From positions 299,527 through 363,526 of the forward strand of contig JAKAGM010000001.1 of NCBI GenBank assembly GCA_021815445.1: 64,000 nt of DNA, given 5' to 3'. The position numbers and the translations under genes were made by a program. The DNA comes from a bacterium. GTDB lineage: Bacteria > Patescibacteriota > Patescibacteriia > UBA10025. Below the pieces are notes generated by a model, which searched no databases, was not told the origin of the DNA, and saw only the letters and a program-made list of their open reading frames with translations. Positions within the stretch are counted from its first letter, which is position 1; every line of letters begins with the position of its first letter. Below, in pieces: positions 30,281 through 57,595 of this stretch.

Positions 30281-31558
<1,278 letters not shown>

Positions 31559-32074
31559 TTAGTATTCTTTTAACCAATCAAAACCAATCCGAGGATCATC
31601 GTGCGGAATGCGCTGTTCATCAGGCTGCTTGGGATTGTAGGGTTCTGTCGTATGATAAAAAAGGAGTACAGGATCGTCGCTCAGCACTTTATACCCATGT
31701 GCAACGCCCGTAGGTATGACCACGAGCTTATAGTCATTCTCGCCAGCCATAATGACTTGTGTTACGCCATATGTTCGGGATTGCTCACGGAGATCATAAA
31801 GCACAATCATGGCTTTTCCCGTTGCGGCAAACCATAGATCATCCTGACGTTTATGCCAGTGAAACGCTTTGACTGTCCCCTTGTGGGCTACGGTAAATGT
31901 CGTCTGGCCGAATTGGCGGAGAAGTTTTTCATCCGCCCGTAAGACTTCCATGAGGAACCCAGGATTAGATGACACTTCACCATCCTCAACAATATCAGGG
32001 AAAACACGAAGTTTTTTTATGACAACGCCATTGATCATACGATTCCTAAATCCTCTTCTCATTATACCTTCCAT
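31559..32074 (-). CDS. rmlC: dTDP-4-dehydrorhamnose 3,5-epimerase-like cupin (RmlC)
   Basis: 171 aa. FHWHKRQDDLWFAATGKAMIVLYDLR ... GVAHGY resembles the RmlC RGLHFQ...DLR and HGF motifs. Operon position with rmlBDA. Confidence 0.72.
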   Translation of the reverse strand: MEGIMRRGFRNRMINGVVIKKLRVFPDIVEDGEVSSNPGFLMEVLRADEKLLRQFGQTTFTVAHKGTVKAFHWHKRQDDLWFAATGKAMIVLYDLREQSRTYGVTQVIMAGENDYKLVVIPTGVAHGYKVLSDDPVLLFYHTTEPYNPKQPDEQRIPHDDPRIGFDWLKEY

Positions 32075-32492
32075 TTAATAAAGTCAAGGAAAAAAAGACA
32101 ATAAGCACGGTGACTATAGCTAACAATACAGAGAAATGCCCAACTGTGCGAGTTTGCCGGTATACAATGCCAGCTGAAGTGAGCGCCAAAATTGATCCAA
32201 TGCAGTATTCCTTGATGCCCGGTTTCTGGAATGTATATTGAGCCTCTTCGTTATGCACAAAAACACTAATTACTCCACTCACTGCAGCTATAGCGAGTAT
32301 GGCGTTAATATTAAAATAATTCGAGACGAAACTTGCACTCATGCTCTCGAGAAGGTACAAGCAAAGATACGTCACCAGGGAAACTTTGAATAGCTCAACT
32401 ATAACTAGCAAGTAAAAATGTGTCCAGAACCCCGCCTTTTTATCCTTGAGAAACATAACCCCTCTCACTTTCTTAATTGCCGGGTGAGCCAA
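32046..32492 (-). CDS. Small polytopic membrane protein, paralog B (GtrA/ArnE-ArnF-like candidate)
   Basis: 148 aa, ~4 hydrophobic helices. FKVSLVTYLCLYLLESMSASFVSNYFNINAILAIAAVSGVIS aligns with FKISLLTYLLFYVIENLYPGFISDYFNTNILLAITALSGTAS of the ORF at 36125-36544. Confidence 0.5.
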   Translation of the reverse strand: MAHPAIKKVRGVMFLKDKKAGFWTHFYLLVIVELFKVSLVTYLCLYLLESMSASFVSNYFNINAILAIAAVSGVISVFVHNEEAQYTFQKPGIKEYCIGSILALTSAGIVYRQTRTVGHFSVLLAIVTVLIVFFSLTLLNGRYNEKRI

Positions 32493-34231
32493 GAAGACAA
32501 TTTCGGGAAAAAGTTTTTGATCGTAATAGGATCTTTGTGGAAAGTAATTGTCAGTTCTTTTATTTTCATTGTCCGGTTATGTTCAGGCAAACCAGGAAAG
32601 TCGATAATGAAATGGGCAAGAATATCTTTTCCTTTATCTAAATAAAGGTACTGGGGTTCAATTGTCGCATCAGCGACTAGCCAATCCCCCTCAGTACGTG
32701 GCTGAGGATAATCGGCAATTATATAGTCATAATCGTCTATATGCTCAACGCTATCCACTTGGGCGACTGAGGCGTAATCTTGATTAAAGATCTGGCTTTT
32801 ATCCAAAGCGAAGAACCCGTCGCCCTGGATATAAACGTCATTGCCCGGCGATACTATTGCCGTTACCCCGGTGAGATTATTGATCTGAGCCGGCGAATTA
32901 ATCGCTGTCAATCTAAGGTCAAGACGACCGACTTTAAGCGTTTGAAGGCTTTCTGGATGCGATGTTTGCGCGCTGATTTTTGTGCTAGTGGTATAGACAG
33001 TAGTCGGCGTCAATACCTTTTCACCGAGTATATCTTTATACGCCTTGCTGTCAGTGAGGTAGATATTTCCCTTAAATACAATAAGATGCTGGGCAGTTGA
33101 AATATTTTTTATGAAAATGTCGTCAGGAGCGTTAATTTTTATTTTGTAAACGCCTTCGGGTAAATTTTCTCGAAAAACCTTCAAGGATCTCTCCTGGGTA
33201 ACAATGCTGCTTGCCTGCGTATCTCCGTCATCAGGCAATTTCTCTTCACCTACTGCTACGCCGCCTGAATCTTCGATAGACACAGAAAAAACGTCAGGAC
33301 CATCATGCCTGTTGCTATCCTGTATATTGAAAAGAAAGTTGAGATTTTCATTCTTTCCGATGTAGGTATCTATCTCGTGCGCCCCGCGAATACTTTTATT
33401 AATAATCGTTTCCTGTCCGCTCGGTTGGTAGCCTGGTAAATGTATGTATTTTGCGACGTTGTAATTATACTCCGCGATTTTGGATATAGCCGGTATGTTA
33501 GAAGTAAACTCTTCTATGGTGGAGTATAACGGCTTGCTTCGAATGGTGGGCACACTTTCCTCTGTGATTTTTTCGAGCGTATCCTGATACCTCGCCTCGA
33601 CAATTTGCTGCTCAGTAAGCATCGCCTGCATACGCTCAGAGTTGAGGTTGACACTGGGGCCGTAGTTTTTTTCTATATTTACCAAAGTTTGTGTTCTTGC
33701 ATCATCAAGCTTCTTTTTCTGGACAGGAAATGCTTTTTTCTTTTCCAAAGTTTCTCGGTAACGAGCATTGTCTTTTTGCCAGAGAACGATATCGCCCTGA
33801 CTTATTTTGTCCCAATAGTCGGGCAGATTATCAAGTGTGGCATTTTGAAAGGCCATATTTTCCAAATGATAGGCACCACTTGGTAATTTGGCGCCAAGGC
33901 GAGTTACCGGCTGGCCGTTTGGATTTTGGTAGGTTAAAATGACGTTTGCACTTTTGAAAGGGCGAGGTACTTTCACATCAAAGTAGGTCGGGTTTGTCGT
34001 AATTAGCTGAAAATAATCGATGTTGCCGGAAATATTTTTTGTCCCGATTAATTTGTCCGGTTCTTTTGACGCAAAATTCCTGACGAGAAGCGAGGGTTGA
34101 TTTGGATGGTAAACAATCTTTAAGGTGCCGCCAAGTACCAGGTGTTTATCTACTAACCAAACAAACAGAACTATCGGCGCAAGCCAAAGTATGATTTTTA
34201 CTGCTCGTAATGGTATATGGTGTTCGTCCAT
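32465..34231 (-). CDS. Large N-terminally anchored extracytoplasmic protein, unknown function
   Basis: 588 aa. TM at residues ~10-28 (IILWLAPIVLFVWLV), remainder hydrophilic. Lies between the GT-C gene and small-membrane paralog B. Confidence 0.5.
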   Translation of the reverse strand: MDEHHIPLRAVKIILWLAPIVLFVWLVDKHLVLGGTLKIVYHPNQPSLLVRNFASKEPDKLIGTKNISGNIDYFQLITTNPTYFDVKVPRPFKSANVILTYQNPNGQPVTRLGAKLPSGAYHLENMAFQNATLDNLPDYWDKISQGDIVLWQKDNARYRETLEKKKAFPVQKKKLDDARTQTLVNIEKNYGPSVNLNSERMQAMLTEQQIVEARYQDTLEKITEESVPTIRSKPLYSTIEEFTSNIPAISKIAEYNYNVAKYIHLPGYQPSGQETIINKSIRGAHEIDTYIGKNENLNFLFNIQDSNRHDGPDVFSVSIEDSGGVAVGEEKLPDDGDTQASSIVTQERSLKVFRENLPEGVYKIKINAPDDIFIKNISTAQHLIVFKGNIYLTDSKAYKDILGEKVLTPTTVYTTSTKISAQTSHPESLQTLKVGRLDLRLTAINSPAQINNLTGVTAIVSPGNDVYIQGDGFFALDKSQIFNQDYASVAQVDSVEHIDDYDYIIADYPQPRTEGDWLVADATIEPQYLYLDKGKDILAHFIIDFPGLPEHNRTMKIKELTITFHKDPITIKNFFPKLSSWLTRQLRK

Positions 34232-34282
34232 AAAATCACATGGTACTTCACACTATGCAATATTTCTGCAGATAAATCAATA

Positions 34283-35974
34283 TCAACGCCCGATGCGGTA
34301 TAAGATCTCGCCGTTTTTACTTAAACTTACAACCGGACTTGCGGAGAACCCTCTCGAGGTGATGTCGTCCAATGCGCTGTTGCCAACAAATGGGTCAAAA
34401 TAGAAATATACCGTTGTTTGTCTCAGCAATGCATCGAGGAATCTATCGCGTGTTGTGATATCTGACGGAAGATTCACAATCACTTTACGCTGGGGGAAAA
34501 AGAGCTTATCGGCCGTACCAGAAATGATAACCGAAGCCGATTCTGTCCGGCTCTCGACGATTTTTTCTCTGTTATTATTTTGCTTCATATTTTCCTTTAG
34601 CGGGACGAGTCCGTATGAAGCGTCAAAGAGAACAGTCATGGCCGCACCGAGTAAAAATATTGCCACCACGGACACAACGACCATGCGTCCCAAGACGCCA
34701 TTCTTGAAAAAGCTCGCGAGTTTTTGGAGACCAAATATAAAAAATGGGATCCCAAAAATATATATTGGCAACCAATATCGTAGATACGAAGATCCCAGAA
34801 CAATCACCGATTGATCTGAGAACTCAGTAAAGATATATGAACCATAATAAATAATCAGCCATAGGGATATAACAAAGAATACCAGCGCATAGATTACTTG
34901 CGGTCGCGGTAGCGGCGGTGCGGGAGGGTGAGAATCAACATGCGGGAAAAATTTCACAATGAACGGTAGAGAAACTCTTCGCACTAGTAAAAGTATTCCG
35001 ATAATAAGGAGGAGCGAGAAAATCGGTGAAAAAAGAAACAGGTACTGGTATGCCGCCACGCTCATACGATGAAAATTCAGACCAAACGGAAGAATCAACT
35101 GCCATAAACGTTCAAAATCAGAATGCGAAACGACATTGGTGACTGAAACCGATATATCCGAGACACTCGGCAAAGGAGCGTATCCAAAAGAATCCCATGA
35201 ACCATAGAGTTGGTGATTATAAAAGAAGATTGGGGCAAAAACCAGGAGACTTGCACCTAAAAAAATGAGGACATGAAACAATCGAATCCGTGCTTTATGC
35301 AGAATTCCCATCAACAGGAGCATTATGACGACCCACGGGGCCTCGGATGTTCTCACTGCAAGAGCGAGCCCGAAAAAAATTCCTGAAAGAAAATACAAAA
35401 GCGTACTGCCACCTTTTGATCTTTTGGAATGGGAGCCGTGTAACAAAAAATAGAGGCCAACTATGATCAGAGAGACGAACAGGCTGTTGTGAAACATTCC
35501 TCGGGATGCGTAATACCAAAAAGGCGGAAGAATAAAAAGCATCAAAGACGAATAAAACGCGATAGTCTTTGAGAAAATCTGCTTGAGCAGCAAATAGAAA
35601 AAAACCACACTGACTGCTGCCATAAACGGCGTGAAGAGAGTCATGGACGCAATTCCCGTAAATTTTGCTATGGCGCCGTACAACATTGGAAGTCCCAGGA
35701 AACTGACTGGAACAGTATACCCGTTAACCAAGGTCATGCTTCGCGGTATAACCAAAGCCCCGGCTAACGTATTGAGCGGCTCATGGTATCGAAGCGAGTT
35801 ATGCTGCGCGAATAATCCCCCAAAAAAATAATTCGCGGTCTCGTCGGGAGATGCAAAACGACTTGGCATTCGATAAGAAAACCATAAATAGATGAAAAAA
35901 AAGACAATACAAAATCCAACTATGATGAGTAGCTTTTTATCAACTCGGGTATTCGTTAAACTCTGCATCTGCAT
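34283..35974 (-). CDS. GT-C fold glycosyltransferase (ArnT/PMT-like, lipid-linked sugar donor)
   Basis: 563 aa with ~11-13 TM segments. First extracytoplasmic loop carries FASPDETANYFFG, a DE-type motif like the ArnT/PMT (GT83/GT39) loop-1 motif. C-terminal soluble domain. Confidence 0.6.
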   Translation of the reverse strand: MQMQSLTNTRVDKKLLIIVGFCIVFFFIYLWFSYRMPSRFASPDETANYFFGGLFAQHNSLRYHEPLNTLAGALVIPRSMTLVNGYTVPVSFLGLPMLYGAIAKFTGIASMTLFTPFMAAVSVVFFYLLLKQIFSKTIAFYSSLMLFILPPFWYYASRGMFHNSLFVSLIIVGLYFLLHGSHSKRSKGGSTLLYFLSGIFFGLALAVRTSEAPWVVIMLLLMGILHKARIRLFHVLIFLGASLLVFAPIFFYNHQLYGSWDSFGYAPLPSVSDISVSVTNVVSHSDFERLWQLILPFGLNFHRMSVAAYQYLFLFSPIFSLLLIIGILLLVRRVSLPFIVKFFPHVDSHPPAPPLPRPQVIYALVFFVISLWLIIYYGSYIFTEFSDQSVIVLGSSYLRYWLPIYIFGIPFFIFGLQKLASFFKNGVLGRMVVVSVVAIFLLGAAMTVLFDASYGLVPLKENMKQNNNREKIVESRTESASVIISGTADKLFFPQRKVIVNLPSDITTRDRFLDALLRQTTVYFYFDPFVGNSALDDITSRGFSASPVVSLSKNGEILYRIGR

Positions 35975-36124
35975 TGTGTTAGTATATCATCTTTCGAGCC
36001 TTTCCAACACCTGGCGTAAGAGACGCAGAAATAAACTATAAGCACCCGTGCAAACGCCGCACTGGCATTCTTTAACAAAATCAAAATGAGCCGGGTATAC
36101 TACGGTACCAAAAAAACTTTATTC

Positions 36125-36544
36125 CTAAGACTCCTCGAGTCCCTCGTCTTCCTCAAATAAGATAAATAAAGAAATCAGAACTATGGTGGCACCGACCAAC
36201 CCAGAGATCACATATCTCAACCAGCCGGACATTTGCAAATTATAGAAGGTGATCCCAGTCGCAAGCGTGGTAACTAAAAAAACGATACCTAGATCCTTCC
36301 ATAAAGCAAGCTTTCGTTGTCCCGTTAAATTTTCGGACCATAAAGCAGAGGCTGTCCCGCTTAAGGCGGTTATTGCAAGTAATATGTTGGTATTAAAATA
36401 ATCCGAAATAAATCCCGGGTAAAGGTTTTCAATGACATAGAACAGTAAATAAGTAAGCAGTGAAATTTTAAAAATTTCGTTCAATATTGTGCGCGCAAAT
36501 CCCAAAATATCAACATTTGTGGAGGTTTGTGGTTTTAATATCAT
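36125..36544 (-). CDS. Small polytopic membrane protein, paralog A (GtrA/ArnE-ArnF-like candidate)
   Basis: 139 aa, ~4 TM, acidic C-terminal tail. Clear paralog of 32046-32492. First gene of the minus-strand glycan operon. Confidence 0.5.
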   Translation of the reverse strand: MILKPQTSTNVDILGFARTILNEIFKISLLTYLLFYVIENLYPGFISDYFNTNILLAITALSGTASALWSENLTGQRKLALWKDLGIVFLVTTLATGITFYNLQMSGWLRYVISGLVGATIVLISLFILFEEDEGLEES

Positions 36545-36778
36545 ACTTGCCTTTATTGTCTCAAATATCGATTCGATCCATCTAAGCTTTTATAAAATTC
36601 ATATTTCAGCAATTTATTTTCCGCTAGAATACTTATTGTAATTTGAGCCTTCTGGCTTCGACCCGGATGAAGCGCCTTTTGCACATACGTTACTTAGTAT
36701 ATCAGCCAACTTCCAACATTACAAAAAGTGGTAACCCGGCCCCTTTTTATTGATTTCAAAAAATCGCCTCGGCGACTA

Positions 36779-36807
36779 TTGACAAAAGCGTACACGTATG
36801 TTAGCAT
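36779..36807 (+). promoter_or_regulatory. Sigma-70-like promoter candidate (TTGACA-17-TAGCAT) upstream of 36940 gene
   Basis: ttgaca at 36779-36784, 17-nt spacer, tagcat at 36802-36807. A second ttgaca is at 36828-36833. Long leader. Confidence 0.35.
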
Positions 36808-36919
36808 TTTTAGTCAAATAAAAGAATAAAAGTAAGTTGACAATGTAACCACGCACACTTACAGTGATGCGTCTGATAGTGAAAGGTAAAGAGCTCTTGT
36901 CATTCACTGAGGGATAACC

Positions 36920-36934
36920 CCGAACCGAACCGAA
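36920..36934. repeat. Short tandem repeat (ccgaa)x3 immediately upstream of start codon
   Basis: ccgaaccgaaccgaa read directly, 5 nt before the ATG at 36940. Confidence 0.4.
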
Positions 36935-36939
36935 ACCCA

Positions 36940-37782
36940 ATGTCCAAGGAGGCTCCATTGAACACACCGTACCCTTATCCAGTATTAACTGTCGGGAACG
37001 ATCCCGAAGGATTCTTTCGTGAGCTCCGCGTTCACGGCATTCATCGTTGGGAACAGCTGACTGAACCGCTTCTGGTGCCGGAATACCGGGAGCAGCGGAG
37101 CCCTCTGACACCTGCTCAAGAAAGAGCGACAACGATGTTTGTTCCCCGGATCGAGGTCATCGACTTCCGGGAGCCCGGCGCTAACGAGGCGTTCACCGGG
37201 GTCAGGTTGAACACCAAGCCCTGGGCGTCGTGTTTCACTCTTCTCCCTCAGGACCCCCATGAGCTTGATGGCTACGACACTCATCGTGAATGGGTTGACC
37301 AGCTGACACCCGATGAGATCGGCGAGGCATTGATTCCCCTGACCTTCGAATTCAAGCACGGTGTGGGCGATCTCTACCCCGGCGCTGAGCACGATGCATG
37401 CACGATAGTGACCCCGTCAGGAGTTCCGAACAAGGACGAATGGCCGCGGGGCTTTGACAGCCTCGAAGACTGCGCACGACGCGAGTTCAGGAACGAGTTC
37501 GGACTCGACCTGGAAAACGTAACGCCCCTCGGTCCTCGGGTCTACGGATTCAGTGTGAGTCCGAGGCGTTCCAATGAAACGGTTCAGCCCTTCTGGGTCG
37601 AGCCGAAACTCCCGCTCGAGTTTCATCCGCGGAAATCGGGCAAGAGTGAACAGCTCTTGCCGTTCCTGATCACGGTGAACGACTATCGGGAGCTCGTTCG
37701 CCGGAAACTGCTCATTGAGATTTACAGCGCAGGGATCGTGTACATCGCCCTCGAGCACCTTGGGCGACTGCAGATCGTCTGA
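36940..37782 (+). CDS. Hypothetical protein in GC-rich insert (possible degenerate Nudix-like box)
   Basis: 280 aa. Visibly higher GC than its flanks. REFRNEFGL resembles, but does not match, the Nudix REUXEEXGU core. A perfect aaggagg lies just after the annotated ATG, with a TTG 5 nt further on, so the true start may be slightly downstream. Confidence 0.45.
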   Translation: MSKEAPLNTPYPYPVLTVGNDPEGFFRELRVHGIHRWEQLTEPLLVPEYREQRSPLTPAQERATTMFVPRIEVIDFREPGANEAFTGVRLNTKPWASCFTLLPQDPHELDGYDTHREWVDQLTPDEIGEALIPLTFEFKHGVGDLYPGAEHDACTIVTPSGVPNKDEWPRGFDSLEDCARREFRNEFGLDLENVTPLGPRVYGFSVSPRRSNETVQPFWVEPKLPLEFHPRKSGKSEQLLPFLITVNDYRELVRRKLLIEIYSAGIVYIALEHLGRLQIV

Positions 37783-37811
37783 CCGCGGTAATCTCGTTTT
37801 CCTGATTTTCA

Positions 37812-37841
37812 CGCGCTTGCCATTTGGCGGCGCGTTTTTTT
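37812..37841 (+). terminator. Rho-independent terminator for the 36940-37782 gene
   Basis: cgcgc-ttgccatttggcg-gcgcg GC-rich hairpin followed by T7 (37835-37841). Confidence 0.5.
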
Positions 37842-37853
37842 AAATAAAAAAAC

Positions 37854-37874
37854 GGGAGAAGCTATACTTCTCCC
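37854..37874 (-). terminator. Rho-independent terminator for the 37891-38955 minus-strand gene
   Basis: Perfect hairpin gggagaag-ctata-cttctccc. On the minus strand it is followed by a T7 run (plus-strand aaataaaaaaa at 37843-37852). Confidence 0.6.
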
Positions 37875-37890
37875 GACATGCCTCGCGGTT

Positions 37891-38955
37891 TTACAACAGC
37901 GAGAGAATAAACCGTGCAGACCTTTCCGCATTTTGCCCATCGAGGCGAAAATTGGCCACCTGAGCTGCCGTGAGACCCAGATCCCCTTTTAGCGCCAGTT
38001 TGAGCTGGGAACACAGTTCCTCATAGCCTGCAGCCATTGTCGAGCATCCGAGGGAAACAACCGGCGGGACATCCATAGAGTTCCCGGTCGACGCCCTGAA
38101 TAGAGAGAGCCCGGCATCAGGATAGAGAACGGAGATGGTCTGCTTCCTGATGGTGGCCGACTCTACGAGAATCGTCGAGTACATCGAGAGTATGACGTCG
38201 CTCGCTGCCAGAAGCTGCTGGGTGGAAAAGCCCGACCCGTCGACAAGAATTCCGCCCGAAAAACATTTGATGGCCTCTTGCCATATTGGCAGTTCATCAG
38301 GGGCATTGTTGCCCATTGCCGGGTGCGCCCGGGGGATCAGATATACCGAGTTGTCGCCGAGCTCATTGAGCGCTCGCACAATCTCGGCAAGCACCGATCC
38401 GCTCCCTTGCCACTGTCCGCCGTACAGTACGATGCGTCCTTGTGGCGGGATGCCTAGCTGCAATCGAACCTTTGACGCTTCTGCCGCAACATCGTACCCC
38501 GCGTACTTGTCGAGTGCGGGGAACCCCGTTGCCCGAATATTCTCGGAAGGAAAGCCAGGCCAGGCCTCCTCAACCAATCTGGCGCCGATGCCATCATTCA
38601 CGATGATGTAATCAGGCCTATAGTCAGGTGCCCGCCAAGCATCATACAGGTACCCTGCCCAGTAGTCCTGGAGCGCAACCACTTGAGTTGATTTGCGAAG
38701 ATAAAGGATAAGGTCCCTCCCGACTCCGCCTTGTGAGCACATGCTGGTTACCAGTGTTTTTGGATAATCCATGGCAAGCAGCGTTTCGACGGATTGAGCT
38801 TGGACAAATACTTCGCCCGATCCGGCTAATATTTCCACAGCCTTACCGTTCGCAAAAAGCTCGACCTGCGCGCCATGAGACCTTATGGCTTTCACCACAG
38901 GAACTATCCCGGCAGTTCCCCCCGTGTCTTTGCACACACACCAAATGTCCGCCAA
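37891..38955 (-). CDS. GT-B fold glycosyltransferase-like protein (GT1/GT28-like) in GC-rich insert
   Basis: 354 aa. N-terminal GGTAG G-loop. C-domain IVLYGGQWQGSGS ... ASDVILSMYSTILVESATIRKQTISVLYPDAG resembles the GT1/MurG-type C-terminal nucleotide-sugar binding region. Confidence 0.5.
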   Translation of the reverse strand: MADIWCVCKDTGGTAGIVPVVKAIRSHGAQVELFANGKAVEILAGSGEVFVQAQSVETLLAMDYPKTLVTSMCSQGGVGRDLILYLRKSTQVVALQDYWAGYLYDAWRAPDYRPDYIIVNDGIGARLVEEAWPGFPSENIRATGFPALDKYAGYDVAAEASKVRLQLGIPPQGRIVLYGGQWQGSGSVLAEIVRALNELGDNSVYLIPRAHPAMGNNAPDELPIWQEAIKCFSGGILVDGSGFSTQQLLAASDVILSMYSTILVESATIRKQTISVLYPDAGLSLFRASTGNSMDVPPVVSLGCSTMAAGYEELCSQLKLALKGDLGLTAAQVANFRLDGQNAERSARFILSLL

Positions 38956-39203
38956 TCTCCACCTCCCTTTAATTGGGTCCGTTTACGGTTTGGAAATGAA
39001 CATGCCTTCAAAAGTGCAAACTGCCAGGAAAAAAAAGATTTTATTGATCTGACGGAACATTATAACTTATTAATTATCATCTGTCAAGGCCGTTCCTACC
39101 ACATTGATGCTGTGATATAGCTGTTATTTCCTTGCATTTTCAGCATTCTGGAAAGCACCCTTTCCAAATAGGACCGTTTCTGTTATGATGGGAACTGAAG
39201 CTT

Positions 39204-39572
39204 ATGGTAAAAAAATGGCTTATTTACTGTTTAGCTGGAGTTTGCGTACTCGTGCTTATTGCGCTCGTCCTGACCATTTGGTTGCCTGTCTTCGTCGCAT
39301 TTAGGTCGGTTTTCGGCTTCGTCTGTCTTTTTTTCTTACCAGGGTACATCTGGAGTTACGTTTTTTGGCGAGGGGGCGAAATAGACGGTACTGAACGCTG
39401 GATACTTGGTATTATGCTCTCTGTTGTTTCTGTCCCTCTGCTGGTTTTTTTTCTCAATAAGATCGGAATAAAAATAAACATCGTTAATGTATTACTGGAA
39501 AGTTTTGTACTTATGCTCTCCTCGTTAATTATCATTTACTACAAAAAAATTAAATCTAAACCATCGCTATGA
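39204..39572 (+). CDS. Small 4-TM membrane protein, hypothetical
   Basis: 122 aa, four hydrophobic helices. 4-nt overlap with the downstream epimerase gene. Tatgat -10-like element at 39183-39188. Confidence 0.45.
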   Translation: MVKKWLIYCLAGVCVLVLIALVLTIWLPVFVAFRSVFGFVCLFFLPGYIWSYVFWRGGEIDGTERWILGIMLSVVSVPLLVFFLNKIGIKINIVNVLLESFVLMLSSLIIIYYKKIKSKPSL

Positions 39573-40552
39573 GGACAGAGAGATTCGCACTTGTATGCGG
39601 CGCCGGAGGTTTTATTGGCAGTCACCTTGTTAGTCGGCTCAAATCTGAAGGATTTTGGGTTCGCGGCGTTGATATAAAAAAACCTGAATTTAGTGAATCG
39701 ACCGCTGACGAGTTTGTCATCGGTGACCTTCGCAACCCGCTCGTGTGCCAAAAAGTGCTCGACAGGCCATTTGATGAAGTGTACCAGCTAGCTGCTGATA
39801 TGGGTGGCGCCGGATACATCTTTACAAAGGATCATGATGCTGATGTCATGCACAATTCAGCAACTGTCAATCTGAATATGGTCTTTTACGGCCAAAAAGC
39901 GGGGGTAAAAAAAATATTCTTCTCCTCTTCAGCCTGCATTTACGCTGAATACAACCAAATGGATCCGGATAACCCAAAGTGCTCGGAGGATTCCGCGTAT
40001 CCTGCCATGCCGGATAGCGAGTATGGTTGGGAAAAGCTCTTCAGTGAACGATTATACCTTTCGTTCAGGAGAAATTACGGCCTCAATGCAAAAATCGCCC
40101 GGTTTCACAATGTTTACGGTCCGGAAGGAGCATGGGACGGCGGCAGAGAAAAAGCTCCGGCAGCTTTGTGTCGTAAAGTTGCCCAGGCAACTGATGGCGG
40201 TGAAATAGAGATGTGGGGTGACGGAAAACAGACGCGGTCTTTCCTTTACATTGATCAATGCCTGGACGGGGTGAGAAGACTTATGGATTCGCCCGATTTC
40301 AATGGACCGGTGAATATCGGTTCCGAGGAAATGGTCACTATCAACCAGCTTGCGGAAATGATTATGGAGATTGCAGGAAAAAAACTGCGCATACACCATA
40401 TCCCCGGACCGCTGGGTGTAAAGGGTCGGAAATCGGACAATAAGCTTATTAGAGAGAAATTGCGGTGGGAGCCTACAGAGCCCCTATCCATAGGGTTGGG
40501 AAAAACATACCGTTGGATTGAACGTCAGATTGTTAATCAAAAGGGATCATAA
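39569..40552 (+). CDS. NAD-dependent nucleotide-sugar epimerase/dehydratase (extended SDR)
   Basis: 327 aa. CGAGGFIGSHLVSRL Rossmann motif and YxxxK region (YGWEKL). Specific sugar substrate not assignable. Confidence 0.8.
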   Translation: MRTERFALVCGAGGFIGSHLVSRLKSEGFWVRGVDIKKPEFSESTADEFVIGDLRNPLVCQKVLDRPFDEVYQLAADMGGAGYIFTKDHDADVMHNSATVNLNMVFYGQKAGVKKIFFSSSACIYAEYNQMDPDNPKCSEDSAYPAMPDSEYGWEKLFSERLYLSFRRNYGLNAKIARFHNVYGPEGAWDGGREKAPAALCRKVAQATDGGEIEMWGDGKQTRSFLYIDQCLDGVRRLMDSPDFNGPVNIGSEEMVTINQLAEMIMEIAGKKLRIHHIPGPLGVKGRKSDNKLIREKLRWEPTEPLSIGLGKTYRWIERQIVNQKGS

Positions 40553-48339: not shown

Positions 48340-49209
48340 ATGAAAAAAGGGGTCAACATTAGGATAATCCCGAGGCTTGACATTAAGGGTCCCAACCTGG
48401 TCAAAGGAATTCATTTGGAAGGTTTACGCGTATTGGGTAAACCGGAGGATTTCGCCAAGCGTTACTATGAAATGGGCGCCGACGAACTTCTCTATGTCGA
48501 CGTCGTCGCAAGTTTGTACAACAGAAACAGTTTGCACGACATCATCTCTAGAACTGCTAAGGAGATATTCATACCCATGACAGTTGGCGGAGGCATACGT
48601 ACAATTGATGACATAAAATCTGTATTGCGGGCGGGTGCGGACAAGGTTGCCCTAAATACCGCAGCAATAAAGAATCCTGAGATCATACGGGAAGCCGCAA
48701 CCATCTTTGGCTCGTCAACAGTCACCATCGCAATAGAAGCGATAAAACAGCCAAACGGCGACTACCTCGCCTACACTGATAACGGTCGTGAATTCACTGG
48801 GGTGGAAGTGCTCGACTGGGCAAAAAAAATTGAATCACTCGGGGCCGGAGAAATCTTGCTCACATCGATAGACAGGGAGGGTACGGGATTGGGTTTCGAT
48901 AAAGAATTAACTAAGCGCATTGCTGCTGCGGTTTCGATACCTGTAGTAGCATGCGGAGGTCCCGGAAAACTTGAGCATATTTATGAGGTTATACATGAAT
49001 CACAGGCTGATGCGGTGGCGATAGCCTCGATGCTGCACTATGATCTCATTGGCCAGGGTAACGCCTCAGCGAAGTATGAAGGCGAAGGAAATACGGAATT
49101 CCTAAAGAAAAAAACAGGCACATTCGGCAAAATTACCAACACGAACATTTCCGCTATAAAAAAATATTTATTTGAACACGACATTCCTTGTCGGTACAGA
49201 AATGAATAA
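48340..49209 (+). CDS. HisF-like cyclase subunit (WbuY-type, glycan amidotransfer)
   Basis: 289 aa. IIPRLDIKGPNLVKG...ADELLYVDV...PMTVGGGIRT is the imidazole-glycerol-phosphate synthase HisF fold. Located in the glycan locus rather than a his operon. Confidence 0.85.
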   Translation: MKKGVNIRIIPRLDIKGPNLVKGIHLEGLRVLGKPEDFAKRYYEMGADELLYVDVVASLYNRNSLHDIISRTAKEIFIPMTVGGGIRTIDDIKSVLRAGADKVALNTAAIKNPEIIREAATIFGSSTVTIAIEAIKQPNGDYLAYTDNGREFTGVEVLDWAKKIESLGAGEILLTSIDREGTGLGFDKELTKRIAAAVSIPVVACGGPGKLEHIYEVIHESQADAVAIASMLHYDLIGQGNASAKYEGEGNTEFLKKKTGTFGKITNTNISAIKKYLFEHDIPCRYRNE

Positions 49210-49885
49210 AACAAACCCAAGGATAGCAATTATTGATTATAAATTGAGCAACCTTTTCAGCGTCAAACATGCATGCGAGTTCGTCGGCATGAATGCTGAA
49301 ATAACATCCTCGCGCGATGATGTTTTAAATGCAGACGGTGCGATTCTGCCAGGTGTAGGGGCGTTCGGCGATGCAATGAAAAATTTAGAAAATTTAAACC
49401 TTGTCAGCGCAATTAAAGAGTTCGTCAAATCCGGAAAACCGCTCATGGGCATTTGCCTCGGACTTCAGTTGCTTTTTTCTGAAAGCGAAGAATTTGGCCC
49501 TCATAAAGGCCTCGGCATTATCCCCGGTAAAGTTGTAAAATTTCCTTCCATAAATTCGGATGGGCGCGTCATAAAGGTTCCTCAAATAGGGTGGAATACA
49601 ATTCATACGCCGGACTCAGATCCTCTCAAATGGCAGAATACTCCCCTCTTAGGAATTGCCGACGGCGAATTTATGTATTTTGTTCATTCCTACTATATTA
49701 TCCCTGACAATACGAGGGATGTGCTGACGACTACGACATACGACACAATCACGTATGCGTCAAGCATACTGCATGATAATGTCATTGCGTTCCAATTCCA
49801 TCCCGAAAAAAGCGGGATAGAGGGCGTCAAAATATATAAGAACTGGGCCTTACACCTAAAAAAATTAAATAACCCGAATATATGA
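49172..49885 (+). CDS. HisH-like class I glutamine amidotransferase (WbuX-type)
   Basis: RIAIIDYKLSNLFSV ... GICLGLQLL (catalytic Cys) ... QFHPEKS. An alternative start at 49202 (MNKTNP) avoids the overlap with the HisF-like gene. Confidence 0.85.
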   Translation: MNTTFLVGTEMNKTNPRIAIIDYKLSNLFSVKHACEFVGMNAEITSSRDDVLNADGAILPGVGAFGDAMKNLENLNLVSAIKEFVKSGKPLMGICLGLQLLFSESEEFGPHKGLGIIPGKVVKFPSINSDGRVIKVPQIGWNTIHTPDSDPLKWQNTPLLGIADGEFMYFVHSYYIIPDNTRDVLTTTTYDTITYASSILHDNVIAFQFHPEKSGIEGVKIYKNWALHLKKLNNPNI

Positions 49886-51102
49886 CTTTAAAGACCATGT
49901 ATGATCTCCCAGAAAAAGTGATTTTTTGCAAACGGTGTGTTATTTCCAATCAACGACCGGCTTCAACCCCGGAGTTCAGGCACACAAAAACTGCAAAAAA
50001 AGTTACGATTAATATAGATTCACAGGGAGTGTGTGACGCATGCCGGCAGGCTGAGGTTAAGGAAAAAATTGACTGGAGCAAACGTGAAAAGGAACTCGTC
50101 GTTTTGCTTGATAAATACCGTAAAAATGACGGAAGTTATGATTGCATCGTGCCCGGAAGTGGCGGCAAGGACAGCGCCTTTCAGGCGCACACTTTAAAAT
50201 ACAAATATGGCATGCATCCATTAACGGTAACTTGGCCTCCGATCCTCTACACTGACTATGGTTATCAAAATTTTAAAAATTGGATTGAAATTGGCGGTTT
50301 TGATAATATCACATTCAAGCAAAACGGACGGGTGATGAAACTGCTTACGAGACTGGCAATCGAAAACCTTTTTCACCCTTTTCAGACATTCATTCTTGGG
50401 CAGAAAAATCTCGGACCAAAAATCGCTTTAAAGTACAAAATTCCCCTGATTTTTTACGGAGAAAATGAAGCGGAATACGGAAACCCAATTGCCGAAAACG
50501 CAACATCCCTTCGCGATAAATCTTACTATGCAATGGAAAATCTTGACGAAGTATACCTCGGGGGCGTTTCGATTCCGGAACTTATAAAAAAATATAACAT
50601 CCAGCTAGCGGACCTTATGGCTTTTCTCCCCCCACGGGCAGAAGATTTAGACTCCTCAAAAATTGAAGTGCACTATTTAGGATATTACCTCAAATGGACG
50701 CCGCAAGAAGTTTATTATTACGCGGTTGAAAATACCGGTTTTAAGGCACGCCCTTTTCGCACACAGGGCACCTATAGCAAATATAATAGCATCGACGATA
50801 AAATCGACGATCTGCATTATTACACGACTCACATCAAATTCGGGATTGGTCGGGCGACATACGACGCTTCGCAGGAAATAAGGAATAGACACCTAACACG
50901 CGAAGACGGCAAAGCGCTCGTCAAACGTTTTGACGGCGAATTTCCAGATCGATATTTTGACGAAATAATGAACTATATAGGCATGGAGCCGAAACATTTC
51001 TTCGAATTATGTGATAAATTCAGACCGTCTCATTTGTGGAAAAAAATTGATGGTGAGTGGAAATTGCGTCACACTGTGAATAGTGACGGCACAGACGATT
51101 AA
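49882..51102 (+). CDS. N-acetyl sugar amidotransferase, PP-loop ATPase (PseA/WbuZ/WbpG-like)
   Basis: 406 aa. N-terminal Cys cluster (CKRC...C..C) and PP-loop VPGSGGKDS. Family partner of the HisH/HisF-like pair in acetamidino-sugar formation. Confidence 0.8.
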   Translation: MTLKTMYDLPEKVIFCKRCVISNQRPASTPEFRHTKTAKKVTINIDSQGVCDACRQAEVKEKIDWSKREKELVVLLDKYRKNDGSYDCIVPGSGGKDSAFQAHTLKYKYGMHPLTVTWPPILYTDYGYQNFKNWIEIGGFDNITFKQNGRVMKLLTRLAIENLFHPFQTFILGQKNLGPKIALKYKIPLIFYGENEAEYGNPIAENATSLRDKSYYAMENLDEVYLGGVSIPELIKKYNIQLADLMAFLPPRAEDLDSSKIEVHYLGYYLKWTPQEVYYYAVENTGFKARPFRTQGTYSKYNSIDDKIDDLHYYTTHIKFGIGRATYDASQEIRNRHLTREDGKALVKRFDGEFPDRYFDEIMNYIGMEPKHFFELCDKFRPSHLWKKIDGEWKLRHTVNSDGTDD

Positions 51103-54801: not shown

Positions 54802-56244
54802 ATGAAAAAAAAAGTTTTAGTGATTATTCATTCAAACACCTATTTTAATGAGTTGTTTAAATTAGCCAGAATGCTTTTACACTCCGAGGCGTATGAACCG
54901 ATTTTGTTATTTCCCGTAAACTACTCCAGAAAAGACGATAATGTTGCGACTTGCTTGCATAATGGATTAACTTGTCTCGATGAATTAGGTACTCAGCTGA
55001 AACACGCAAGTGTTAAAAATACCGGCGTAACAGCGTCAACGTTTCCTTTACATAATGTGACTGCCTCTTTGCGTACCTGGGTGCGAAACATGCTCAAAAT
55101 CATCCAAATTGACTTCATTTTCGGGACTTTGTACATGATTCTATTTCTGAAAAGACGAATCTCATTCGCTCAAGAGGTCATTAAAAAGCACAATTGTGAA
55201 CTCATAGTCGTGGGTGGCGATCTTGTACATTATGATTCTTCCGCATTTATCCGCGCGGGGCATGAATTGGGCGTTAAGTCCGTCATCATACCTTGCACGA
55301 TGTCAAACGCCCTTGAGATGGCGGAATCATACTACGGTGACAAGCGCTATTCGATGTCAACTCTTGGTAACTGGCTTGCGGGTAAGCTGATGCCTGAGTG
55401 GACCTATATACATAAGGGAAAAAAAATGCTTCGGACTCCGGCCGACCGTGCATTTGCTATGTATTTTCTCCGCCTCTCCCCCCCATTTCCGTGGATAAAT
55501 AACAGCTCCTTTGCAGATGCCATTGCGGCAGAGAGCGAGATGATGAGGCTGTATTACACTCGAGAAGGGATACCAAACGCTCAGATAACAATTACAGGAT
55601 CCCCCTCTCATGATATTTTGGCGAGTGCCGAAAAAAAGCTTGATACCGAGAAACATACTATTTTCCGGGAGTTGAATCTCAACCCGGGAAAACCGGTCAT
55701 TTTATCCCCCCTGGTGCCAAATCAACACTACCTCGCCGGGGGAAGACCTGAATGCGAATTTCGCACTTATGAGGAACTAATCGAATTCTGGGTACATGCC
55801 ATTTCGAAGATGAGCTCGTCTCATAATATTTTAATAAATCTCCACCCTTCAATGAAAATTGATGATTATAGGAAATTTGAGAAAAATGGAGTTACAATTT
55901 CCGACGCTGACATAACATCACTCATACCTTACTGTGATTTCTTTGTAGCAAGCGTTTCTTCAGTCATTCGGTGGGCCATTGCGTGCGGCAAGCCTGTCCT
56001 TAATTATGACATATATAAATTCCGATACACTGATTACCTCTACCAACCAGCGGTGATCACTACTGAGAAAAAAGGGGATTTTCTGAATTTCTTGGAAAGG
56101 TTGAGCCATGACGCCGCATATTTACGCGAGTTATCGCTGAAGCAAAAAATTTTTTCGAGGAAATGGGGTATCCTTGATGGCAAAGCGCACGTCAGAATCA
56201 TCCAGTTGTTTGATTTGCTCACCAAATCGGGAGTACATGCCTAG
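54802..56244 (+). CDS. Large GT-B-like transferase, tandem paralog 1 (Capsule_synth/KpsS-KpsC-like candidate)
   Basis: 480 aa. N-terminus KVLVIIHSNTYFNELFKLARML. C-terminal FFVASVSSVIRWAIACGKPVLNYDIYKF resembles the ...TINSgvGlEAL..GKPV..G...Y motif of beta-Kdo/sialyl-type Capsule_synth transferases. Confidence 0.45.
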   Translation: MKKKVLVIIHSNTYFNELFKLARMLLHSEAYEPILLFPVNYSRKDDNVATCLHNGLTCLDELGTQLKHASVKNTGVTASTFPLHNVTASLRTWVRNMLKIIQIDFIFGTLYMILFLKRRISFAQEVIKKHNCELIVVGGDLVHYDSSAFIRAGHELGVKSVIIPCTMSNALEMAESYYGDKRYSMSTLGNWLAGKLMPEWTYIHKGKKMLRTPADRAFAMYFLRLSPPFPWINNSSFADAIAAESEMMRLYYTREGIPNAQITITGSPSHDILASAEKKLDTEKHTIFRELNLNPGKPVILSPLVPNQHYLAGGRPECEFRTYEELIEFWVHAISKMSSSHNILINLHPSMKIDDYRKFEKNGVTISDADITSLIPYCDFFVASVSSVIRWAIACGKPVLNYDIYKFRYTDYLYQPAVITTEKKGDFLNFLERLSHDAAYLRELSLKQKIFSRKWGILDGKAHVRIIQLFDLLTKSGVHA

Positions 56245-57595
56245 ATTCATACTCTTTGTCGTAAATACAAACACATATTTCTCCGTATTATTCAATTTAG
56301 CCAGGCGGTTTAAGGCGTCTTCTTTCGCCATCCATATCGTGTTTGATGGAGGCTACCCTACCCTTCAACACGATATCGAACGCTGCCGAACAGCAAGACT
56401 AGATTTTTCCATTAGAAACGAGTACGGTTTTTCGAATAATTATTTCATCCGCGTCCTTCAGTTAATCTTATCGAGGGGGTCCCTTGGCAAATTCGTTAAA
56501 TCCTATCTCCAGACGCTCTATGATATCCGATCAATTAAGCAGCTACTGCAACAAAAACAGCCGGATTTTATCGCCCTGGCGGCTGATAACGTCGCATATT
56601 CCACCGCGTTATATATTAAGCTCGGACATACCCTCGGCATAAAAACAGTCGTTTTTCCGCAGTGGTTAGCTAATGCGAAAGAGCCCGTGGAATTTATCAT
56701 TAATGACGATGATTATGAAGTGAAATCTGTTTACTCAAAACTTATTGCCAGGTTCTTTCCCAAGTGGACTTTTTCTGTGAATGGAAAAACATTGCTTCGT
56801 CTGCCTGCTCAAAAAATACTTCTCAAGGAGCTATTTGGCATCTCGCCCAAACTCCCATGGATACTGCATAGCGGAGATGCCGATCGTATCGCTTTAGAAA
56901 GCCGGGCGATGAAAGCATTTTCCAGGAGAATTGGCTTGCCGGATGAACAAACCATTGTAACAGGTTCATTGGAGCTAGACATGTTGTGCGATATAAAGAA
57001 ACACTCTGCAATTTTGCGCCATAAACTCTACGCTAGATACGGATTTGCAAAATCACGCCCCCTTGTGATTACCGCCCTGCCGCCTGATTTCTACACACAT
57101 ACCGGAGGGAGGCCTCAAAGCGAATTTAAAAATTACCGAGAGCTTTTGAATAAGTGGATTGATGCTTTCAAAGTCAATAACCCGGCGAATTTACTGGTTT
57201 GCGTTCATCCCTCTGTAGATAAAAAAAACTTTTCACTGGCTGAGACTGCATACATGAAGCTCTGCAGGGAAGATTTAATTAACGTTTTACCACTTGGGGA
57301 CTTGTTCGTAGCAAGTGTTTCCGCTACTATTCAGTGGGCAATCTGCGTAAATATCCCGACTATAAACTATGACGTTTACCAATATGACTACGATGAATAT
57401 AAGCATGTTGCGGGCGTTATTACTGTTCGCGATTACCACAATTTTAAAACGACGCTGAAACATCTGACACAGCGGCCGGCTGAAATCGAGGAGCTGAGGA
57501 AAAAGCAAAGCAAAATCTCAGACATGTGGGGAACTCTCGATGGTCATTCATTCGACCGTATACAATCATTAATCGATTCTCTCGATAAAGCATGA
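56237..57595 (+). CDS. Large GT-B-like transferase, tandem paralog 2
   Basis: Aligns with the preceding gene at both ends (FILFVVNTNTYFSVLFNLARRF; LFVASVSATIQWAICVNIPTINYDVYQYDY; C-terminal WGTLDGHSFDRIQSLID vs WGILDGKAHVRIIQLFD). Start at ATG 56237 (8-nt overlap) preferred over ORF-track 56174. Confidence 0.45.
   Translation: MPRFILFVVNTNTYFSVLFNLARRFKASSFAIHIVFDGGYPTLQHDIERCRTARLDFSIRNEYGFSNNYFIRVLQLILSRGSLGKFVKSYLQTLYDIRSIKQLLQQKQPDFIALAADNVAYSTALYIKLGHTLGIKTVVFPQWLANAKEPVEFIINDDDYEVKSVYSKLIARFFPKWTFSVNGKTLLRLPAQKILLKELFGISPKLPWILHSGDADRIALESRAMKAFSRRIGLPDEQTIVTGSLELDMLCDIKKHSAILRHKLYARYGFAKSRPLVITALPPDFYTHTGGRPQSEFKNYRELLNKWIDAFKVNNPANLLVCVHPSVDKKNFSLAETAYMKLCREDLINVLPLGDLFVASVSATIQWAICVNIPTINYDVYQYDYDEYKHVAGVITVRDYHNFKTTLKHLTQRPAEIEELRKKQSKISDMWGTLDGHSFDRIQSLIDSLDKA

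Follow-up and report, generated by a model that had tools for sequence, protein, structure and literature searches.

In the 64,000-nucleotide stretch of contig JAKAGM010000001.1 analysed here (positions 299,527 to 363,526 of the forward strand, assembly GCA_021815445.1, Patescibacteriota lineage UBA10025; in the following "the window"), a surface-glycan island contains two convergent, GC-rich genes that encode a predicted Nudix protein (g280) and a GT-B-like protein (g354). We favour, with moderate confidence, an explanation of their entry, anatomy and functions in which the pair forms an old two-gene accessory islet of a Patescibacteria surface-glycan locus. The islet would have entered between the genes for a large membrane protein (g563) and a DUF1616 membrane protein before two carrier lineages split, the donor probably being a GC-richer member of the Patescibacteria, and would since have been inherited with its flanks while its composition was ameliorated unevenly. 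Patescibacteria, or Candidate Phyla Radiation (CPR) bacteria, are uncultured episymbionts whose surface glycans probably mediate attachment to their hosts, and to our knowledge almost nothing is known on how these glycans are built or diversified. The case presented here illustrates a single variable slot of such a locus, gives fold assignments for two proteins left unnamed in public databases and draws attention to a GT-B family which was met here only in Patescibacteria-type contexts, tracks nonulosonate genes and carries an uncharacterised N-terminal domain. As an event of horizontal transfer it is ordinary, the sole real puzzle being an excess of GC at third codon positions (GC3) that outlives synonymous saturation between lineages. 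The two genes are:

36958 to 37782, plus strand (36940 to 37782 as open reading frame, ORF): Nudix gene g280, 274 amino acids from TTG 36958 or 280 amino acids from ATG 36940.
37891 to 38955, minus strand: GT-B gene g354, 354 amino acids from TTG 38955.

The original prediction, made from the letters alone, had singled out 36940-38955 as GC-richer than its surroundings, and windowed analysis agrees with it: the segment has a GC content of 56.0% as compared to 44.7% in the rest of the window, which corresponds to a z of 3.8 against all other 2-kb windows (maximum 51%). Its dinucleotide signature, which is independent of GC content, is atypical as well, with a distance of 0.084 that only 3 of 116 other windows exceed, and its tetranucleotide profile falls within the lowest tenth. 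Among the 52 non-overlapping genes of the window the two occupy ranks 1 and 2 for both GC and GC3, the latter being 0.673 in the Nudix gene and 0.600 in the GT-B gene versus 0.461 ± 0.038 in the others (z +5.6 and +3.7). GC at first codon positions (GC1) is also raised in both genes (z +2.6 and +2.1), and GC at second positions (GC2) less so. The rise is sharply bounded and affects neither the neighbouring genes nor the spacers. That GC3 richness might be intrinsic to the two families was rejected by comparing homologues with their own neighbours: in 10 other loci the homologues of both families have a GC3 typical of the genes around them (z -1.5 to +1.4).

The nearest relative of the locus was found on contigs L001/L010 of Patescibacteria group bacterium SO_2017_GW1_133, a metagenome-assembled genome (MAG) in GenBank. 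Both genes stand there in the same place and orientation and in identical synteny, with protein identities of 68% (Nudix) and 66% (GT-B), at the low end of the 65-86% seen for the flanking enzymes. Since this sister locus carries both genes in identical synteny, the pair is old and vertically co-inherited and is not a recent or strain-specific insert. The pair recurs on 11 contigs from the window's organism and, for the sister, in two independent Joint Genome Institute (JGI) samples, and it is therefore not an assembly chimera. Identity at four-fold synonymous sites between the window and L001 is 0.25-0.38 in 17 of 18 genes, where ~0.25 is expected at random, and 0.50 in the DUF1616 gene (n=24). 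The compositional anomaly has survived in part: in L001 the GC3 of the Nudix gene is still up (0.593, z +2.4), while that of the GT-B gene is wholly at the level of the host (0.446, z +0.2). Gene order between the two loci is fully kept over 20 kb, with protein identities from 29% (a PEGA-domain protein) to 86% (epimerase and Wzm), which makes the locus a mosaic of genes with very unequal rates or histories.

A metagenome scan with g588, a second large protein of the locus, recovered three further loci (L094, L096 and L097, 36-38% GC) with the backbone g563, g588, a small membrane protein and then (adenosylhomocysteinase and) rml genes. Neither tblastn nor profile hidden Markov models detected a relative of either gene in these three. 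The interval between the g563 gene or its homologue and the DUF1616 gene measures 3.2 kb in the window and 62 bp in L094, where it is an empty site for the pair. The view that the two genes were added to the locus is thus upheld by three related loci which have the same backbone and lack them both.

The protein encoded by g280 had been described as being of unknown fold. From its structure model and relatives it is instead predicted to be a two-domain Nudix protein of the NudK/ADP-ribose-pyrophosphatase type, a class acting on nucleoside diphosphate (NDP)-sugars or ADP-ribose, with an N-terminal beta domain, which serves for dimerisation in solved members, and an alpha/beta/alpha Nudix domain. 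Pfam NUDIX (PF00293) matches residues 173-237 with 23.9 bits (cutoff 21.1). A word-indexed search of 5.8 billion clustered proteins returned a single close homologue, the 68%-identical protein on the sister contig, and an exhaustive HMMER search found 83 distant relatives (~225-245 amino acids, 26-37% identity) among 1.84 billion representatives; 29 of the 40 aligned relatives match Pfam NUDIX (best E 9e-10), and one is named as a NUDIX protein of Candidatus Magasanikbacteria. No NCBIfam family matched g280 at E ≤ 0.1, and phmmer against the PDB gave nothing relevant. With a 40-sequence alignment AlphaFold2 produced a model with a predicted local distance difference test score (pLDDT) of 92.2 and a predicted TM-score of 0.89, as compared to a pLDDT of 36 with a 2-sequence alignment. 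In Foldseek the model matched 138 PDB chains at E ≤ 0.001, and all 50 matches listed are Nudix enzymes. The top ones (3o6z, 5c7q, 9drf, 1g0s and 2yvm) align over 190-230 columns with E values of 6e-9 to 1e-7 and TM-scores of 0.64-0.78 when normalised by target length, or ~0.5 by query length; for the first three, E is about 1e-8 and the target-normalised TM-score 0.7-0.78. The best match is the E. coli GDP-mannose hydrolase YffH/NudK, and a Bdellovibrio NDP-sugar hydrolase, ADP-ribose diphosphatases and Thermus Ndx2 are also among the top matches.

The Nudix box of g280 can be written as G161-x5-E167-(6-residue insert)-x7-R181-E182-F-R-N185-E186-F-G188-L. Set against the canonical GX5EX7REUXEEXGU, it has G161, E167, R181, E182, E186 and G188 in place, and N185 stands for the first Glu of the EE pair. 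The L001 protein has the same 6-residue insertion and the same Asn, a few relatives carry a Q at this site, and the shortest members of the family have a canonical box (e.g., P0044, G-VPRRD-E-PMDVCAK-REFMEETGI). A helical insertion of ~25 amino acids (residues ~107-131) occurs in g280 and the L001 protein and not in the rest of the family. With E. coli NudK/YffH, the Bdellovibrio NDP-sugar hydrolase, NudF and Thermus Ndx2 the protein has the two-domain architecture and, in a variant form, the Nudix box in common; it differs from NudK/NudF-type enzymes in identity (12-18% only), in ~60 extra N-terminal residues, in the helical and box-loop insertions and in the Asn of its REFRNEFGL motif. Another Nudix enzyme encoded in a surface-polysaccharide cluster is the GDP-mannose mannosyl hydrolase Gmm/WcaH (NudD) of the colanic acid cluster, which is thought to regulate the pool of activated sugar. 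Gmm/WcaH belongs to a different Nudix subfamily, has a single domain and cleaves at C1 of the sugar, and no sequence or structural match between it and g280 came up. Alignment with the sister locus and with the N-termini of the family, together with a Shine-Dalgarno sequence, indicates that translation of g280 probably starts at TTG 36958; the public gene call (ATG 36940, without a Shine-Dalgarno sequence) seems 6 codons overlong.

The second protein, g354, had been called GT-B-like, and this assignment held: Pfam PF04464 (CDP-glycerol glycerophosphotransferase) matches with 32.4 bits (cutoff 22.1), although the match is confined to profile positions 133-283 of 367. By sequence, g354 appears to be a member of an uncharacterised GT-B family of ~350 amino acids whose nearest relatives are the TagB/TagF phosphotransferases and which resembles these in its C-terminal half. 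We found 41 homologues with 35-66% identity, all ~350 amino acids long and one of them from Candidatus Yanofskybacteria; among the contigs examined the family was seen only in those of Patescibacteria type. PF04464 is matched by 29 of 37 family members (best E 3.5e-16) and PF02350 (UDP-GlcNAc 2-epimerase), weakly, by 17 of 37; g354 itself has no PF02350 match at E ≤ 0.1. Against the PDB, the family profile retrieved Cps3D (2e-6), TagF (9e-4) and TarL (3e-3). In the alignment, g354 keeps GFPALD (GYPRxD in TagF), PRAHPAM around TagF H584/TarL H433, and SMYST (TDYSS in TagF). In the family profile the first two motifs appear as GYPAlD and raHPrm, "ipraHprm" being aligned with "llrmHyli" of TagF and "ifrgHhlv" of Cps3D. 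This invariant His of the C-terminal subdomain contacts the alpha-phosphate of the donor in TagF and TarL (PMC10901376); it is invariant in the g354 family too (H205 in P0003, equivalent to H211 of the 354-residue protein). The N-terminal half of the family has an invariant Q-D-x-W, an N-D and D143, and no invariant His. The TarB family NF041711 of NCBIfam scored 24.3 bits against g354, with a cutoff of 500. The start at TTG 38955 is supported by the N-terminus of the family (IWAVCKDPGGT in g354, IWxVCKDxGGT being conserved) and a strong Shine-Dalgarno sequence; the public call (348 amino acids, from 38937) is 6 codons short, and the JGI call of the L001 homologue is short by ~16 codons.

The known proteins closest to this description are the TagB/TarB primases and the TagF/TarL/Cps3D polymerases: they match PF04464, and their GYPxxD, invariant His and (D/M)YS(S/T) motifs align with g354. 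The size of g354 is similar to that of the primases, whereas the alignment to TagF-like enzymes is in the C-terminal half only. Proteins with a TagB domain are required for the addition of pseudaminic (Pse) or legionaminic acid (Leg) in Tannerella forsythia (PMC5420450), and one of the Leg cluster of Bacillus subtilis, SpsB, is dispensable for Leg transfer (PMC7439481). The Tannerella proteins Tanf_01245/TFUB4_00887 (BFO_1060 family) are, like g354, TagB-like GT-B proteins encoded beside nonulosonate genes (PMC5420450), but two BFO_1060-like genes of the window match them far better than g354 does. In g354 a faint BFO_1060 match (E 2.6e-4) covers residues 244-276; a relationship to the BFO_1060-like transferases of the island (54802-57595) was rejected by hhalign, with a probability of 4%.

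A NeuB gene lies within 5 kb of the g354-family gene in six of nine independent contexts (window/L001, L005, L006, L009, L098 and L100), and the other three are without nonulosonate genes. In L100 the order is NeuB, the g354 homologue and a CTP_transf_3 gene of the CMP-nonulosonate-synthetase type. In two independent nonulosonate loci (L005:6988-10211 and L006/L007:6960-9074) genes for EamA/DMT-type transporters flank the g354 homologues. Taken with its sequence motifs, these neighbourhoods suggest that g354 is most likely a nonulosonate-associated GT-B enzyme handling a donor linked to a cytidine nucleotide; it would use CMP-nonulosonate or a CDP-polyol to decorate the glycan. No gene for a CDP-glycerol or CDP-ribitol synthase was found among the window ORFs scanned with Pfam and NCBIfam (about half of those of at least 150 amino acids). 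The main alternative is a role as NeuC/PseG-like NDP-sugar hydrolase. NeuC/LegG (hydrolysing 2-epimerases) and PseG have a GT-B fold like g354, the L100 homologue fills the slot between NeuB and the cytidylyltransferase, and hhalign aligns the g354 family with the NeuC of the window with a probability of 41%, in the C-terminal half and including a terminal DGxxAxR motif. On the other hand, g354 lacks the PF02350 match and the window already codes for NeuC.

The elements around and between the two genes are as follows:

36545 to 36957, no strand: AT-rich intergenic region (GC 36-41%) between the divergent genes g139 (minus) and g280 (plus), from the ORF map.
36779 to 36807, plus strand: sigma-70-like promoter of the Nudix gene (TTGACA, 17 nt, TAGCAT, with extended -10 TG), 10 of 12 positions in a consensus scan.
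36920 to 36934, plus strand: short tandem repeat (CCGAA)3 in the 5' untranslated region (UTR), exact and unique in the window.
36946 to 36952, plus strand: Shine-Dalgarno sequence AAGGAGG, 5 nt before TTG 36958, read from the sequence.
37811 to 37841, plus strand: intrinsic terminator of the Nudix gene, hairpin 37811-37835 followed by U7 (-16.2 kcal/mol, z -3.3 versus shuffles).
37846 to 37875, minus strand: intrinsic terminator of the GT-B gene, 10-bp stem 37875-37853 followed by U7 (-16.2 kcal/mol, z -5.9 versus shuffles).
38957 to 38967, minus strand: strong Shine-Dalgarno sequence GGAGGTGGAG before TTG 38955, read on the minus strand.
39059 to 39087, minus strand: sigma-70-like promoter of the GT-B gene with perfect consensus (TTGACA, 17 nt, TATAAT), 12 of 12 in the scan.

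The convergent arrangement (ORFs 36940-37782 and 37891-38955) and the paired terminators, each a hairpin with a T-run, had both been recognised in the original prediction and were confirmed at the coordinates given there. The genes are 108 bp apart, and the spacer holds both terminators back to back with a common A/T tract; both are kept in L001 with compensatory changes in their stems. The islet would thus be composed of two independent single-gene units, each with a sigma-70-type promoter and a Shine-Dalgarno sequence, which the terminators would insulate from each other. A leader of ~400 nt with promoter-like elements and a (CCGAA)3 repeat had also been proposed upstream of the Nudix gene. 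The AT-rich stretch 36545-36939 (395 nt), several sigma-70-like matches within it and the repeat are all present, but this "leader", like the DNA upstream of the GT-B gene, is an ordinary divergent promoter region. A consensus scan of 36000-39600 found 11 sigma-70-like matches where 3.9 were expected. The -35 and -10 boxes of the match at 36779-36807, which would give the Nudix gene a 5' UTR of ~140 nt, are the best-conserved block in the intergenic alignment with L001, and a second promoter-like match (36837-36865) is not conserved there. For the GT-B gene, L001 retains the TTGACA and a TATAxT box, and it also has the same CCAAGGAGG-spacer-TTG arrangement in front of its Nudix gene. The idea of a riboswitch or a structured leader in front of the Nudix gene was rejected: Rfam had no match in the whole window at the gathering threshold or in 36400-39300 at E ≤ 1, the predicted fold of the 5' UTR is no better than that of shuffles (z 0.02), and (CCGAA)3 is not conserved. 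The UTR of the GT-B gene is likewise unstructured by folding. L001 lacks (CCGAA)3, the alignment having a gap at this point, and the repeat is therefore probably a neutral product of slippage. From their sequences, the promoters and terminators of the pair look host-like.

In the functional part of the explanation we favour, g280 would cleave an NDP-sugar to nucleoside monophosphate and sugar-1-phosphate and thereby trim or regulate the pool of activated sugars of the locus. It is the sole Nudix-like ORF in the window. Two outgroup loci, L094 and L096, have a canonical Nudix gene of the NudE/NudF-like kind (178-200 amino acids; L094:13802-14338 and L096:13855-14454, box RELHEETGI) as part of the rml operon, where it is enclosed by rmlB and the adenosylhomocysteinase gene. 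No Nudix gene occupies this position in the window or the sister, and in the window 9 bp separate rmlB from the adenosylhomocysteinase gene. The islet protein may stand in for the outgroup enzyme and would, as we infer, have displaced an operon-borne Nudix pyrophosphatase of the same structural class. Several points weigh against these assignments. With Asn instead of the first Glu in the EE pair, g280 may have a reduced or altered activity. A profile of residues 1-142 of g354 found no solved relative by sequence, and the catalytic base of TagF (H444, equivalent to TarL H300) could not be located in g354, whose N-terminal half lies outside the Pfam and PDB alignments. A NeuC that scores above the equivalog cutoff is already encoded in the island, as are two putative nonulosonate transferases of BFO_1060-like type, so that it is not obvious what g354 would be needed for. 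With regard to a link between the two genes, they do not form an operon, and neither family adjoins the other in any other locus examined.

It is a serious possibility, if somewhat short of an even chance, that the two genes are functionally unrelated, the Nudix protein being a relocated housekeeping enzyme and only the GT-B protein taking part in glycan synthesis. Members of the Nudix family in other CPR genomes are found among genes for tRNA synthetases, ribosomal proteins and EF-Ts, g354 relatives never have a Nudix neighbour in the other loci examined, and the pair itself is convergent with separate promoters and terminators. What speaks for a connection is that both genes have the same compositional anomaly and the same pattern of presence and absence over five loci, and that the Nudix gene of the outgroup rml operons is not found in the loci that carry the pair, which points to a demand for some Nudix activity in the locus.

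With respect to the origin of the islet, both families occur only in Patescibacteria-type contexts among those examined, so that any donor was probably another CPR bacterium, and we regard the pair as probably foreign and of intra-CPR origin. A Patescibacteria-type contig of 57.6% GC does carry a 49%-identical homologue at 63% GC. The proposal of a laterally acquired module is therefore partly supported: composition and the lack of the pair in L094, L096 and L097 speak for it, whereas the insertion is not recent, signs of mobility are missing and no donor was identified, and the closest homologues of both genes lie within the same lineage in identical synteny, as far as the nearest relative, the Patescibacteria MAG (68%/66%), is concerned, a finding that the original prediction had itself named as one which would speak against it. 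A mobile element, phage, plasmid or anti-phage defence origin was rejected, with no flanking repeats, no blastn match in phage or plasmid collections and no PADLOC match. In comparison with acquired genes of O-antigen and capsule loci, the pair is likewise a sharply bounded compositional outlier in a variable glycan locus that is not found in related loci; it differs in being GC-richer than the host instead of AT-richer, in its size of 2 kb, in the lack of mobility signatures and in its presence in two lineages with saturated divergence.

A single old acquisition has to contend with further observations. No integrase, transposase or tRNA genes and no notable border repeats were found in 35974-39204. 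Neighbour-joining trees of both families are star-like, with the clade of window and L001 not nested in a GC-rich clade, and hence indicate no donor. Since the compositions of g280 and g354 are ordinary for their families (within 1 standard deviation of the family means), part of the GC1/GC2 excess is intrinsic to these families. With synonymous sites saturated, a GC3 excess that predates the split of the two lineages should be largely erased, yet +21 and +14 points are kept. A single ancient acquisition is just tenable in the face of this saturation if the donor was very GC-rich and the estimate, with ~100 sites per gene, is noisy; later allelic replacement or selection on composition would explain the excess more easily.

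Such a replacement, in which an ancestral pair was overwritten fairly recently by homologous recombination with the alleles of a GC-richer relative, would make the GC3 young and the synteny old. It would reconcile the saturated sites with the GC3 of 0.67 and 0.60 in the window, and it would fit the host-like GT-B gene of L001 (where only the Nudix gene is raised), the identities of the pair at the low end of the locus enzymes, and the variation of one side of g563 in every lineage, which resembles a recombination hot spot. We nevertheless hold it to be unlikely, though worth keeping in mind, since no GC-rich carrier of a g280-type gene appeared among the 5.8 billion clustered proteins, where only the window's organism and its sister have one, and since the promoters and terminators are AT-rich and conserved with L001, so that the replaced tract must end exactly at the borders of the coding sequences.

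Slightly less probable still is that no transfer took place and that the genes are native, their GC richness resulting from amino-acid composition and codon selection or from a local mutational bias, and the outgroups having lost the pair. The restriction of both families to Patescibacteria-type genomes among those named or examined, the host-type regulatory signals, the survival of the excess in two lineages despite saturated synonymous divergence and the family-typical proteins, both richer in Gly, Ala, Arg and Pro than the average protein of the window, would suit this explanation. It conflicts with the fact that the strongest deviation is seen in GC3, a measure independent of amino-acid composition, with the GC3 of homologues elsewhere, which matches that of their neighbours, and with the complete loss of the excess in the L001 GT-B gene. 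The dinucleotide signature is atypical too, and the anomaly extends over two adjoining genes that are unrelated to each other but spares the genes and spacers around them. We likewise consider it improbable that the g354 family represents a new class in the nonulosonate pathway (a CMP-nonulosonate transferase, or a hydrolase replacing NeuC/PseG with a novel N-terminal catalytic domain), with g280 as its dedicated partner displacing the NudE-like enzyme and with the GC3 excess stemming from selection on composition.

The left part of the window contains genes for SecA, Mur ligases, a type IV pilus ATPase, CTP synthase and MurA, and its right part is the surface-glycan island. This comprises rmlA, rmlD, rmlB and rmlC, among which an adenosylhomocysteinase gene is set, g588 and g563, the GC-rich pair, the DUF1616 membrane protein, an SDR epimerase and a Wzm/Wzt ABC exporter. 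It also holds a nonulosonate pathway (PseF-like cytidylyltransferase, NeuB, NeuC, PglD-like acetyltransferase, DegT aminotransferase and PseB-like dehydratase), which is of the legionaminic type, as well as a WbuX/HisH/HisF-like amidotransferase set, methyltransferase and GT2 genes, and two tandem BFO_1060/TagB-like genes. The adenosylhomocysteinase gene (30281-31537, minus strand) is full-length (NCBIfam equivalog, 619 bits), and its position within the dTDP-rhamnose operon is kept in L001, L094 and L096. Together with the methyltransferase genes of the island this hints at heavy methylation of the glycan dependent on S-adenosylmethionine. Downstream of the nonulosonate genes, the trio of HisF-like, HisH-like and WbuX proteins (48340-51102, plus strand; N-acetyl sugar amidotransferase, 363 bits) suggests a sugar with an acetamidino modification, as in Leg5Am7Ac. 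The tandem genes at 54802-56244 and 56174-57595 (plus strand, ~475 amino acids each) have weak matches to BFO_1060, the family of putative nonulosonate transferases of the Tannerella type, and PF04464 is matched by the first as well. Both are likelier candidates than g354 for the nonulosonate transferases of the island itself.

The SDR epimerase gene adjoining the pair (39569-40552, plus strand) has 65-79% identity with proteins from numerous unrelated phyla, and a contig scan with it led mostly to such phyla, including Bacteroidales, Gammaproteobacteria, Pirellulales, Chloroflexota and one archaeon. It is not at the corresponding position in L094, and is either extremely conserved or itself widely exchanged. 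On the other side, directly upstream of the Nudix gene and divergent from it, lies g139 (36125-36544, minus strand), a 32%-identical paralogue of g136, the small membrane protein adjoining rmlC (32046-32456, minus strand). The sister locus has a single copy of the g136/g139 type, which does not lie next to the pair; g139 is hence a lineage-specific addition to the variable slot. Homology of g139 to the small genes beside the Nudix gene in other CPR genomes was rejected, those being cupin-like and unrelated. The large proteins g588 and g563 (32465-35974, minus strand) lack Pfam domains, and g563, which is a multi-pass membrane protein, gives a faint match to the putative glycosyltransferase LA_3751/3752. 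Their backbone is common to at least five lineages (window, L001, L094, L096 and L097) at only 38-44% identity, and beyond g563 each of them has a gene cargo of its own, which makes this site look like a hot spot of gene content.

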